From Escherichia coli (GTDB taxonomy: Bacteria; Pseudomonadota; Gammaproteobacteria; Enterobacterales; Enterobacteriaceae): DNA of 64,000 bases. Position 1 is the stretch's first letter; each line of letters starts with the position of its first letter. Location: NCBI RefSeq assembly GCF_009931435.1, contig NZ_CP043414.1; one strand, 5' to 3'. Below, piece by piece: positions 39,001 through 42,000 of the stretch. A program made the position numbers.

Positions 39001-42000
39001 GAGGGGGGAGGCTGCCTTTAGTCCGGTTTTTAAATATTAAAAATATATATTAAAGTGATGATACAATAACGGAGATAATTGAAATGAAAAAGGTTTTTGC
39101 TGTTTCAGTGGTGGGCGCAGCCTGTGTATTTGCAGCAAATGCAGGTGCTGAGGACGGTAAAAGCGGTTTTTATCTGACCGGTAAAGCCGGTGCCTCTGTG
39201 GTGTCACTTTCAGACCAGCGTTTCCTGTCAGGAGATGAAGAAGAAACGTCAAAGTATAAAGGTGGGGATGACCATGACACGGTATTCAGTGGCGGTATCG
39301 CAGCCGGTTATGATTTTTATCCGCAGTTCAGTATTCCGGTTCGTACAGAACTGGAGTTTTACGCACGTGGAAAAGCTGATTCGAAGTATAACATAGATAA
39401 AGGTAAAGGCAGCTGGTCAGATGGTTACTGGCGTGATGACCTTAAGAATGAGGTATCACTCAACACTCTGATGCTGAATGCATACTATGACTTCCGGAAT
39501 GACAGTGCATTCACACCATGGGTATCAGCAGGGATTGGTTACGCCAGGATTCATCAGAAAACAACCGGTATCAGCACCTGGGATTACGGGTACGGATACA
39601 GTGGTCGTGAATCGTTGTCACGTTCAGGCTCTGCTGACAACTTCGCATGGAGCCTTGGCGCGGGTGTTCGCTATGACGTAACCCCGGATATCGCTCTGGA
39701 CCTCAGCTATCGCTATCTTGATGCAGGTGACAGCAGTGTGAGTTACAAGGACGAGTGGGGCGATAAATATAAATCAGAAGTTGATGTTAAAAGTCATGAC
39801 ATCATGCTTGGTGTGACTTATAACTTCTGACGACACTGCTTCTGAACGATAATTGCGCATATTTCTGCAATTAAGATAATTACGTATTTCTGTAATTAAA
39901 AAGGAACACCCTGCAGTAATATTATACTGCAGGGTTGTCTGTTATCTGTTTCACAGATAACTTCTGATTTTTATTATCCTGTTCTCTTCATAATAATGTT
40001 GTCGATATACTCCGATGAATATAAGAAAACTGTTTTGTCCGGGCAACACTCCCCGGATTATATTGTTTTTATTCTTTTTTGTTGTTTCTGTCATAACCAC
40101 AATTGCATGCGGATACACTGAGAAGAATGCCACCGGGAATGTGTTGCTGCTGTTCCTTCTTCTGCTCCTTGCACACAGAAATACCCTCACATCCATTACA
40201 GCGCTGTTATTTCTGTTCTGTTGTGCACTGTATGCGCCTGCCGGTATGACGTACGGAAAAATCAACAACAGTTTTATTGTCGCGTTGTTGCAGACCACGG
40301 CGGATGAGGCTGCGGAGTTTACCGGGATGATTCCTGTTTATCATTTTCTGGTCAGTGCCGCGATTCTGGTGTTCATGGTTATTTTCTGGCGGACACACCA
40401 CCGTGGTCAACGTAACGCGATGGCTCTGTTGTTATTCGTATTATGCTCTGTAAACAGCTGGCCGTTACGGATGGTTAAAGGAACAGTTGTGGGGACAACT
40501 GACACATTGCGTGAAATGCAGCGTTATGAACAACTGAGTCGGCACGGTGCTGACAGCTGGAAAATCCTGCCGGGAGCACCATTATATGACACGATTGTTA
40601 TTGTTACTGGTGAGAGTGTCCGCAGGGATTATATGTCGGTATATGGTTATCCCGAGCCAACCACACCATGGCTGAATACGGCTCCCGGTTTATTTATTGA
40701 CGGTTATACATCGGCAGCAGCCAGTACCGTACCTTCCCTGAGCCGGACACTGATTTATGACTATGAGCAGAACCCTGACTCCGGCAACAACGTGGTGGCG
40801 CTGGCAGCAAAAGCAGGATACAGCACATGGTGGATATCCAATCAGGGAAAGCTGGGGGAGCATGATACACGCATCTCTGTTATTGCTTCTGATGCGGAGC
40901 ATACCGTTTTCCTCAAGAAAGGCAGCTTTGCTTCCCGTAAAACGGATGACATGTTGTTGTTACAGGAAACAGAACGTGCGCTGGCAGATACATCCACTCC
41001 GAAGGTGATTTTCCTGCACATGATGGGGTCTCATCCGAACCCGTGTGATCGGCTTCACTCCTGGCAGAATAATTACCTGGAGCAGTATTCCCGAAAAATT
41101 GCCTGTTATCTTGCCAGCATCAGTAAACTGGATAACTTTCTCGGTCAGCTTGATGGTATCCTTCGCCGGTATTCCCGTCATTTTGCCATGCTTTACTTTT
41201 CTGACCATGGGCTGTCGGTCAGCGACAGTGCTAATCCTGTTCATCATGATGGTCATGTGCAGGGAGGCTACAGCGTTCCCCTGATTATTACCGCCAGTGA
41301 CATCACGTCTCATCAGTCTGTCAGCAGAAAAATCAGTGCCCGTCATTTCGCAGGTATTTTTCAGTGGCTGACCGGCATTCGTACTGAAAATATACCGCCA
41401 TTCAATCCGCTGACAGACGAAGATAATGAACCCATTATGGTTTTTAACGGAGACAAGAATGTACCGACAGACAGCCTTGAGTCACAGCCTCTGATTCTTC
41501 CGGGCAAGGGAAAATAAGAGTAATGTTCATCACCAGGTTATGTACGATGAGTTTTCCACTGTTTATAGCAATTATCTTGCTAATAACCAGACAGGAGTAA
41601 CCAGACCAACCGAAAACACCGGGGAGGTGATTACCCGCTGGCAGAGGAGGTGATGCTGCCAACTTACTGATTTAGTGTATGATGGTGTTTTTGAGGTGCT
41701 CCAGTGGCTTCTGTTTCTATCAGCTGTCCCTCCTGTTCAGCTACTGACGGGGTGGTGCGTAACGGCAAAAGCACCGCCGGACATCAGCGCTATCTCTGCT
41801 CTCACTGCCGTAAAACATGGCAACTGCAGTTCACTTACACCGCTTCTCAACCCGGTACGCACCAGAAAATCATTGATATGGCCATGAATGGCGTTGGATG
41901 CCGGGCAACCGCCCGCATTATGGGCGTTGGCCTCAACACGATTTTCCGCCATTTAAAAAACTCAGGCCGCAGTCGGTAACCTCGCGCATACAGCCGGGCA

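Follow-up and report, generated by a model that had tools for sequence, protein, structure and literature searches.

A putative Hek/Hra1-type adhesin gene and an intact yjgX-type phosphoethanolamine transferase gene as a probable island module near selC in Escherichia coli

In the stretch of 64,000 nucleotides of Escherichia coli DNA analysed here (contig NZ_CP043414.1; hereafter the window), two adjacent genes lie between the remnant of an integrase gene and an IS1/Tn21 resistance region. The first-pass annotation described them as two surface-modification genes, one for a beta-barrel protein of the outer membrane and the other for a phosphoethanolamine (PEtN) transferase of the lipid A or LPS core type, and asked whether they are island cargo or plasmid-derived. 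That question was apt, and the P4-like integrases at three tRNA genes, together with the almost exclusively chromosomal distribution described below, answer it in favour of chromosomal island cargo. The gene pair is very probably a conserved integrase-proximal module of the tRNA-associated islands of E. coli, here of a selC island, and consists of a Hek/Hra1-type adhesin gene and an intact yjgX-type transferase gene. It is a well-known and very common island module of E. coli.

ORF calling recovered both genes on the plus strand at exactly the coordinates first given for them (39084-41517), and their stated surroundings, the integrase remnant on one side and the IS1/Tn21 region on the other, were confirmed as well (Table 1). 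Neither ORF is a chance reading frame: the first matches Pfam OMP_b-brl and the second Pfam Sulfatase (PF00884). Chromosomal DNA of several E. coli strains matches the 2.8-kb stretch at 99.8% identity, and the PGAP annotation of those chromosomes names the same two genes.

Table 1. Features of the gene pair and its surroundings, with positions in the window
Feature	Position	Strand	Basis
P4-like tyrosine integrase, C-terminal remnant, about 55 codons	38055..38220	-	translation reads ...AAYIHKAEHLDERKLMLQWWADFLDANRE...
Hypothetical protein, 122 aa, between integrase remnant and adhesin gene	38498..38866	+	ORF
Putative Hra-family outer-membrane adhesin/invasin, Hek/Hra1-type allele, 248 aa	39084..39830	+	OMP_b-brl 2.1e-20, Hra identities
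Hairpin, 11-bp stem, terminator-like, after adhesin gene	39908..39935	+	arms conserved in hra1, hes and tia-like loci (alignment)
Sigma-70-like promoter site TTCACA-16-TATTAT, 10/12, upstream of transferase gene	39950..39977	+	consensus match only
YjgX-type, OpgE-family phosphoethanolamine transferase, intact, 500 aa	40015..41517	+	Sulfatase 6.5e-37, OpgE/yjgX identity
IS1, 768 bp, left border of resistance region	41649..42416	+	IS1 terminal repeat at 41649; insA/insB ORFs
38-bp terminal inverted repeat, mer end of Tn21-type transposon, 58 bp past IS1	42475..42512	+	GGGGGCACCTCAGAAAACGGAAAATAAAGCACGCTAAG read directly

The integrase remnant shows 76-80% nucleotide identity to the 3' ends of intact integrases (L090, L091, L092, L087). 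In the O26 locus L002, which is 99.9% identical, it is annotated as a frameshifted, incomplete integrase, and an equivalent remnant is found upstream of hra1 in EAEC 042. The 122-aa hypothetical protein has no match in Pfam, NCBIfam or PADLOC; its ORF is annotated as hypothetical in the O26 locus, and the annotation of FORC 064 shows just a shorter hypothetical ORF in this place; in FORC 064 a tet(B) transposon (Tn10-like) flanked by IS10/ISVsa5 lies directly downstream. The Rfam search revealed no structured RNA in the region of the gene pair. An anti-phage defence gene was ruled out for both proteins, since neither the adhesin nor the transferase matches a PADLOC protein model.

The sequences flanking the IS1 of the window are unlike, GGCAGAGGA on the left and CCCCGGACG on the right, and therefore there is no target-site duplication around it. 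At this site FORC 064 carries an IS1 with a 9-bp duplication, GGCAGAGGA; the TPR gene, the integrase gene and selC come after it. The 38-bp inverted repeat past the IS1 in the window, which we take to be the mer-end repeat of Tn21, is followed by merR/merT and blaTEM, and the resistance region is 100% identical to mer/Tn3/TEM-1 regions of both plasmids and chromosomes. The IS1/Tn21 region is a later insertion beside the gene pair and is unrelated to it. This Tn21-type resistance insertion would have severed the pair from the TPR gene, the integrase and selC.

The pair recurs in a common layout at selC, pheV and leuX, composed of the tRNA gene, a P4-like integrase, a SisA-like TPR protein, the transferase and an Hra-family gene. 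At pheV, hra1 (EAEC 042), hes (STEC 94-3024) and a tia-like gene are all located directly upstream of a gene for a 499-500-aa transferase, and these transferases are 94.4-94.8% identical to that of the window. The selC version of the module is present in FORC 064 and O26. Among 5426 complete E. coli genomes, 1447 contain the transferase gene over at least 80% of its length and 1284 have partial matches only; of the 3705 matching places, 3702 lie on chromosomes. When 72,556 plasmids were searched at the DNA and protein level, the only matches were mislabelled chromosomes, one 214-kb plasmid with a 94.6%-identical copy, and a 52%-identical paralogue, which is common on conjugative, IncI-like plasmids. 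The occurrence at three tRNA genes and the chromosomal distribution indicate that the module is island backbone or cargo. A plasmid origin was ruled out on these results. Related blocks have been published: GIselC17584/1 is reported to have the same 1503-bp CDS at selC (PMC6174562), Hes and the LAA island have been described (PMC5539235), a block of sisA, a PEtN transferase gene and hes has been reported (PMC13340028), and "putative opgE" genes were found next to integrases in pap islands (PMC8946752).

Judged by its sequence, the product of the first gene belongs to the Hra family, and is of the Hek/Hra1 type. It is 89.0% identical at the aa level to Hra1 of EAEC 042, 85.0% to Hes of 94-3024 and 64.3% to a protein that NCBI names Tia, and members of the Hra family are about 65-90% identical to one another (PMC5539235). 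At the DNA level the gene is closest to hek, with at least 91% nucleotide identity, a lower bound because the hek comparison sequence is an OCR-damaged copy from a paper supplement. The best database clusters are 95-96% identical to the protein, which is thus an allele of its own. Haemagglutination, autoaggregation, adherence or invasion have been demonstrated for Hes and Hra1 (PMC5539235), and the identity to these experimentally tested proteins suggests that gene 1 also functions as an adhesin. The term "surface-modification gene" does not suit the first gene, whose outer-membrane product is probably an adhesin/invasin and no surface-modification enzyme; the second gene does encode a sulfatase-fold PEtN transferase.

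The AlphaFold model of the adhesin (pLDDT 86.4) is an 8-stranded barrel in which residues 1-23 have low confidence (signal peptide). Its best fold matches are small barrels (NspA, OmpA, Ail, OmpX and OmpW), and the C-terminus reads TYNF, ending in an aromatic residue. In the allele alignment, variation is concentrated in the predicted surface loops between conserved strands. The protein would form an 8-stranded barrel in the outer membrane, and its long surface loops would mediate haemagglutination, autoaggregation, adherence or invasion. The dN/dS values of 0.14-0.24 indicate purifying selection. For the same locus pair, dS is 1.11 for the adhesin and 0.146 for the transferase; the adhesin allele has been exchanged by recombination, independently of the transferase.

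In the intergenic region, termination at the hairpin is only presumed, because the T-run that follows it is weak. The promoter-like site falls in the intergenic part that is conserved among E. coli alleles. PmrA-box-like repeats (ATTAAG/ATTAAA) are observed at 39873 and 39894, 21 bp apart and 5' of the hairpin; they are a duplication, and are missing in two alleles.

For the transferase, the Pfam EptA_B_N match is marginal (22.4 bits, with a cut-off of 22.3). The best relative of solved structure is the catalytic domain of E. coli EptC (5e-18 with the single sequence, 1.2e-35 with the profile), full-length MCR-1 (9nww) aligns to profile positions 32-430, and every solved relative found is a PEtN transferase. 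Residues E200, T238, H340, D397 and H398 are invariant across 18 homologues, and they align with the GE(S/T), ST, GxH and DHG motifs in the alignments to EptC and MCR-1, a placement that builds on the residue numbering of MCR-1. Hydropathy is strong in segments of residues 9-127; a further, weaker segment covers about 135-152. Hydropathy and the profile alignment to full-length MCR-1 together predict an N-terminal multi-helix membrane anchor.

The closest characterised protein is OpgE, the periplasmic-glucan PEtN transferase of class IX (241 bits, 31.6% identity over 493 aa, E 8e-77), with both the membrane and the catalytic domains covered. Other E. coli paralogues score lower: YhbX 108 bits, EptC 93 (26% identity for K-12 EptC), EptB 55 and EptA 43 (20% for K-12 EptA), and BcsG gave no match in the pairwise comparison. 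The NCBIfam models for CptA reach 107 bits against a cut-off of 404 and 84 against 900, with the catalytic domain alone aligning; those for EptA reach 59 and 38 bits against 561 and 660, and those for MCR 19-34 bits against 1075-1250. Membership in EptA, EptB, EptC or MCR was ruled out by these cut-offs and the pairwise scores. The earlier assignment to the lipid A/LPS-core type is thus not sustained, and of the families proposed with it for comparison, EptA, EptB, EptC, CptA, OpgE and MCR, the transferase stands nearest to OpgE and is not MCR-like. NCBI names some of its paralogues "lipid A phosphoethanolamine transferase", a name for which no supporting model passes its cut-off. A relationship to the plasmid-borne O-antigen PEtN transferase Lpt-O was ruled out, as Lpt-O of S. 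flexneri pSFxv_2 gave no BLASTP match at E <= 1e-3.

The gene is also not a core eptC or opgE orthologue displaced by rearrangement, as had been considered; it is a mobile paralogue, and the core opgE remains beside ompX. Core opgE orthologues are 72-96% identical to K-12 OpgE across Enterobacteriaceae, and ompX is adjacent in 46 of the 51 such loci. An orthologue would be expected at high identity in the conserved core locus, ompX-opgE-mntS/mntR. By these comparisons the transferase is classified as a paralogue of OpgE and not as an orthologue. Pairing of adhesin and transferase beyond close relatives was rejected, with 80 loci of other genera having no Hra-like neighbour, most of them core opgE by ompX.

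K-12 yjgX matches the transferase with 89.7% identity over 320 aa (residues 177-496) and, in a second frame, with 72.5% over 91 aa (93-183). It is convergent with the P4-like integrase gene intB, next to leuX, in the island KpLE2. From this similarity, K-12 yjgX is recognised as a degraded copy of the transferase type that is intact in the window. Deletion of yjgX in K-12 gave no defensin phenotype, a result that is uninformative because that copy is a pseudogene.

The transferase would be anchored in the inner membrane by several N-terminal helices and have its alkaline-phosphatase-fold domain in the periplasm. By analogy with the solved PEtN transferases, Thr238 would take phosphoethanolamine from phosphatidylethanolamine, the metal site would consist of E200, D397 and H398 together with H340, and PEtN would pass from Thr238 to a periplasmic or envelope acceptor; the proposed mechanism and acceptor both follow this analogy. 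OpgE adds PEtN to osmoregulated periplasmic glucans (OPG), an activity demonstrated for OpgE only (PMC3818809). Since no other characterised relative comes nearly as close as OpgE, the acceptor is most likely a glycan. As a rough estimate, OPG or another envelope glycan is the probable acceptor, with OPG and LPS or another polysaccharide carrying similar weight, while lipid A is very unlikely and the adjacent adhesin, on the same rough scale, improbable. No paper testing the function of this transferase or its acceptor was found in the literature, and the acceptor is for this reason extrapolated from a 32%-identical paralogue. The presence of core opgE in E. coli argues for another acceptor, or another regulation, of the island transferase. 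The only published deletion of the transferase gene also took out hes and sisA, and a bloodstream-infection GWAS picked the gene up as "putative opgE".

The dN/dS between intact transferase alleles (0.15-0.21) indicates purifying selection, and in the window the reading frame spans all 500 aa, without a difference from FORC 064. The largest protein cluster is full length (8941 members); large clusters of truncated forms exist at 445 aa (3043) and 370-371 aa (737 and 501). The gene is often degraded, as in the K-12 pseudogene, the frameshifted O26 copy (L002) and these 370-445-aa clusters, and its function thus appears dispensable in many lineages.

It is unlikely that lipid A or the LPS inner core is the target of the transferase, as it is of EptA/MCR, EptB or EptC/CptA, with a change in susceptibility to polymyxin or cationic peptides. 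The transferase shares superfamily and catalytic residues with these enzymes, CptA is its best NCBIfam model, and its paralogues bear the lipid A name in some sources, but all the lipid A and core models remain far under their cut-offs, and EptA is the most distant E. coli paralogue still matching whereas OpgE is the closest. No annotated mcr gene was among the matches listed in the plasmid protein search at E <= 1e-8, and the gene, which over a quarter of the complete E. coli genomes contain, is presumably no recognised marker of colistin resistance. Because OpgE is the closest characterised relative and the lipid A/core models fail, a polymyxin phenotype is not expected from homology. The idea that the pair came with the adjoining IS1/Tn21 resistance region, and is therefore plasmid-derived, is effectively refuted. 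The pair does abut IS1 and a Tn21-type transposon; plasmids are among the closest matches of this transposon, and the 52% paralogue and the copy on the 214-kb plasmid show that such genes occur on plasmids. However, the selC islands of FORC 064 and O26, which are without the resistance region, hold the pair at the same distance from the IS1 site or empty site, the DNA left of the pair is collinear with these islands, and nearly all matching places are chromosomal.

The two genes could also be a functional couple, the transferase placing PEtN on the Hra adhesin or altering LPS for it, as with PptA and pilin or with Campylobacter EptC and FlgG. The genes are neighbours on the same strand and stay so at three tRNA sites of E. 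coli islands as well as in a Salmonella island, whose two proteins share only about 56% identity with those of the window, and PEtN transferases with protein substrates exist (PMC10525099). Such coupling is nonetheless improbable, for the conserved hairpin and the promoter-like site stand between the two genes and the adhesin allele has been swapped independently of the transferase. In addition, Providencia homologues of the outer-membrane protein sit beside fimbrial operons with no transferase neighbour, some Salmonella loci have the transferase lost or split, and the transferase homologues on IncI-like plasmids, in Erwinia and at the 80 loci of other genera have no such outer-membrane protein as neighbour. 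HB101 is a laboratory K-12/B hybrid that presumably lacks an intact copy of the transferase. In this host, hes cloned alone conferred haemagglutination, autoaggregation, biofilm formation and adherence (PMC5539235). There is equally little probability that the transferase gene has no present role in this strain and is a passenger in decay; the K-12 pseudogene, the frameshifted O26 copy, the large truncated clusters and the genomes with partial matches only would fit such decay, but the frame in the window is complete with all catalytic residues, selection among intact alleles is purifying, and the largest cluster is full length.

A further proposal is that the YjgX-type transferase has a conserved backbone function in P4-integrase islands, adding PEtN to an acceptor new for the class, such as an LPS core/O-antigen sugar or the Hra adhesin; this is doubtful, though conceivable. 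If true, the modification would alter adhesion, serum resistance or the receptor properties for phages or conjugation, and somewhere between a quarter and half of E. coli strains would carry PEtN transferases of a new substrate class. A PEtN transferase that more than one in four complete E. coli genomes encode, sited beside island integrases and kept under purifying selection, has an acceptor that is only putative. Annotators should avoid listing the transferase as an MCR-like candidate for colistin resistance and should label the outer-membrane protein an adhesin.

Among known systems, the Hra family (Hra1, Hek, Hes, Tia and Hra2) shares with the protein of the window its size, the hek-like 5' end of the gene, the signal peptide, the tRNA-linked islands, the position directly upstream of the same transferase and the loop-concentrated variation; the protein of the window differs as a distinct allele and is a putative adhesin by identity. 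OpgE (YbiP) resembles the transferase in its full-length homology and similar length class (500-527 aa), but core opgE is conserved and convergent with ompX, whereas the transferase gene of the window is mobile and island-borne. EptC/CptA, EptA/MCR and EptB share the superfamily, the catalytic Thr with the metal ligands and, as predicted, the two-domain architecture, although they are only 20-26% identical to the transferase, in the catalytic domain alone. K-12 yjgX, about 90% identical, has the same convergent position relative to a P4-like integrase by a tRNA gene, but it is a truncated, frameshifted form whose adhesin gene has been lost, unlike the intact copy of the window. LAA module I and GIselC17584/1, both of STEC islands, contain the same block of int, sisA (TPR), PEtN transferase and Hra-family genes; in the window this block is split from the TPR gene and the integrase by the IS1-bounded Tn21-type region, and it carries a hek-type instead of a hes allele.

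Both open reading frames of the first-pass annotation were found with exact boundaries, and the surrounding sequence features confirmed that the pair lies between an integrase remnant and an IS1/Tn21-type region. The coordinates are collected in the table. The 38-bp inverted repeat is presumably the mer-end repeat of Tn21.

Features of the pair and its surroundings in the window
Feature	Position	Strand	Size	Remark
hsdR/M/S	29010-35287			type I R-M
AAA ATPase and overlapping partner	35296-37814	+	540 aa and 313 aa	directly after hsdR/M/S
P4-like integrase C-terminal remnant	~38055-38220	-	~55 codons	left of pair
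OMP ORF	39084-39830	same as transferase ORF	248 aa	Pfam OMP_b-brl, 2.1e-20
Imperfect tandem duplication	39866-39900		~21 bp	between adhesin stop codon and hairpin
Transferase ORF	40015-41517	same as OMP ORF	500 aa	Pfam Sulfatase PF00884, 6.5e-37
IS1	41649-42416			right of pair
Inverted repeat	42475-42512		38 bp	58 bp beyond IS1; then merR/merT and TEM-1/Tn3 region
merP-like ORF and following genes	43330-44500			merP-like ORF stops early at ~43545
blaTEM-1	43640-44500	-		with Tn3-family resolvase and transposase
AAC_AAD_leader/attI element of class 1 integron	60058-60136	-		sole Rfam match in window; 73.9 bits, E 9e-14

The first gene had been described as a surface-modification gene, but it is better assigned to the adhesins. 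Besides OMP_b-brl, it showed weaker Pfam matches to Opacity, OmpA, and OmpW. The protein-collection search found a relative that NCBI names "invasion outer membrane protein Tia" (63% identity, full length), along with numerous E. coli proteins labelled only as "porin family" (74-96%). The hra1 gene of EAEC 042 and hes of STEC 94-3024 were retrieved through published coordinates (PMC5539235), and amino-acid identity of the OMP to their products is 89.0% (Hra1) and 85.0% (Hes); for the Tia-named protein it is 64.3%. The OCR copy of hek (PMC5539235 supplement) shows at least 91% DNA identity and shares a distinctive 5' end and signal peptide with the window gene; the OCR copy of hra1 shows 87.6%. 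The AlphaFold model (pLDDT 86.4) has eight long strands and a fold matching that of small barrels (NspA, OmpA, Ail, OmpX, and OmpW), and among 22 homologues the sequence varies between the conserved strands. By these identities, the modelled barrel, and the pattern of variation, the protein belongs to the Hra adhesin/invasin family as a Hek/Hra1-type member and is no surface-modification enzyme.

The second gene was correctly recognized as a phosphoethanolamine (PEtN) transferase: all of its solved relatives are PEtN transferases. The EptC catalytic domain matched at 5e-18 when the single sequence was the query and at 1.2e-35 when a profile was used, and MCR-1 matched the profile at 1e-15, the full-length protein aligning from profile position 32 on. 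E200, T238, H340, D397, and H398 align with the metal ligands and Thr nucleophile of MCR-1/EptC, and none of them varies across 18 homologues whose identity goes as low as 31%. By hydropathy, several membrane segments lie within the first ~150 residues. The Pfam match to the EptA_B_N membrane domain is marginal. An EptA-, EptC (CptA)-, or MCR-type reading did not hold, as all curated NCBIfam models fell far short of their cut-offs (CptA 107 bits vs. 404, EptA 38-59 vs. 561-660, MCR 19-34 vs. 1075-1250). Six K-12 paralogues were fetched, translated, and compared; OpgE was by far the nearest (31.6% over 493 aa, 241 bits), followed by YhbX (108 bits), EptC (93), EptB (55), and EptA (43), and BcsG gave no match. 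Lpt-O of S. flexneri was also considered as a relative and rejected, showing no similarity.

The same pair is found inside the selC island of FORC 064 and O26 strain 97-3250, in the order hsdR/M/S, AAA ATPase, hypothetical, integrase remnant, hypothetical, OMP, transferase, (IS1), TPR protein, P4-like integrase, tRNA-Sec, yicJ. At pheV, the loci of hra1, hes, and the tia-like gene share the layout tRNA-int-(TPR)-transferase-OMP. A 2026 publication assigns the TPR protein to SisA (PMC13340028). The block is contained in the descriptions of GIselC17584/1 (PMC6174562) and LAA module I (PMC5539235), and "putative opgE" genes adjoining integrases in pap islands were reported in a GWAS (PMC8946752). 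The OpgE-like transferase is very widespread: of 5426 complete E. coli genomes, 1447 carry its gene over 80% or more of the length, and 2731 have any match (up to 5 copies per genome). A 2.8-kb query that covers both genes (38900-41700) is present to 80% or more in 1052 genomes. The matching places are chromosomal in 3702 of 3705 cases. In plasmid searches, a close copy turned up on a single 214-kb plasmid, and a 52% paralogue on ~125 plasmids, mostly conjugative. Therefore, of the two origins proposed earlier, the island stands and the plasmid does not: the pair is island cargo or backbone. It is an ordinary, already-annotated island module, which the first-pass annotation described accurately and interpreted partly correctly.

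The 52% paralogue belongs to a cluster of 1955 members; on an IncI-like plasmid contig (L084, 5346-7536) it lies beside a DUF2569 membrane-protein gene, with hok copies, an exclusion-determinant gene, and a large transfer gene nearby, and has no OMP neighbour on that backbone. An integrase C-terminal remnant upstream of the Hra-family gene is also seen in EAEC 042 (L091, 6598-6783) and the tia-like locus (L087, ~5616-6012), which suggests a small unit, int-sisA-transferase-hra, positioned ahead of an older island with a truncated integrase. Among PADLOC candidate-defence models, the 540-aa ATPase matches PDC-M55A (1.4e-40), NsnB (3.2e-37), and AriA (5.5e-22), and its partner has no family match; these two genes and the type I R-M system together resemble a defence cluster within the selC island.

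In FORC 064, IS1 occupies the identical site with the 9-bp duplication GGCAGAGGA on both sides, and the TPR gene follows as the next part of the island; in O26 the site is empty. The window IS1 has the same left flank, and its right flank is foreign DNA leading to the Tn21-type repeat. Thus, the resistance region is a later event using this IS1, and is uninformative on the origin of the pair. This IS1 was the route by which it arrived here or, alternatively, was lost elsewhere; the window contains only one IS1 end, and the downstream island DNA is absent up to position 64000. No target-site duplication accompanies the IS1 (41649-42512 region), and the 58 bp before the repeat are foreign. The early stop of the merP-like ORF and the blaTEM-1/Tn3 genes after it show a TEM transposon inserted in the mer operon.

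Obligate coupling of adhesin and transferase would fit their same-strand adjacency in all E. coli islands examined and their retention in a Salmonella island where both proteins are only ~56% identical to those of the window. It is nevertheless improbable. The intergenic region holds a conserved hairpin with an 11-bp stem and a site resembling a promoter, and hes by itself gives adhesive phenotypes in HB101 (PMC5539235). Between the window (39084-41517) and the tia-like locus (L087, 6001-8411), dS is 1.11 for the adhesin and 0.146 for the neighbouring transferase, and therefore the adhesin allele was replaced by recombination on a conserved backbone; the conserved 5' and 3' ends of hra-family genes (PMC5539235) fit such replacement. 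In other Salmonella loci the transferase gene is split or lost, in Providencia the OMP homologues adjoin fimbrial genes, and no Hra-like neighbour is present at 80 loci whose transferase homologues are more distant.

The ~21-bp duplication (TTTCTGCAATTAAG... / TTTCTGTAATTAAA...) also occurs in the hes locus, but neither the hra1 nor the tia-like locus has it. Core opgE and ompX, the latter another 8-stranded barrel gene, are convergent in K-12 (L093, 4451-6598) and in 46 of 51 OpgE-orthologue loci of Enterobacteriaceae (L011-L082). This adjacency parallels the island barrel-plus-transferase arrangement in a different orientation, and may be coincidence.

The transferase has a full-length frame, with 100% identity to the FORC 064 copy and intact catalytic residues, and dN/dS among intact alleles is 0.15-0.21; decay is common elsewhere (K-12, O26, large truncated clusters). 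By analogy with solved family members, a PEtN-Thr238 intermediate would be formed from phosphatidylethanolamine and handed to a periplasmic acceptor. This acceptor is most likely a glycan, because OpgE is the sole close characterised relative; since E. coli still keeps core opgE, an acceptor distinct from that of OpgE is plausible. Of the options, lipid A has the least support. The sole published deletion including this gene also took out hes and sisA (PMC13340028).

Compared with known systems, the transferase is closest to OpgE among characterised proteins, but OpgE is encoded by a core gene next to ompX. The K-12 gene yjgX lies beside intB and leuX; with 90% identity over residues 177-496, it is the decayed copy of the window gene. 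It is a pseudogene, whereas the window copy is full length. The OMP is close to Hra1, Hes, and Hek, and more distant from the Tia-named protein.
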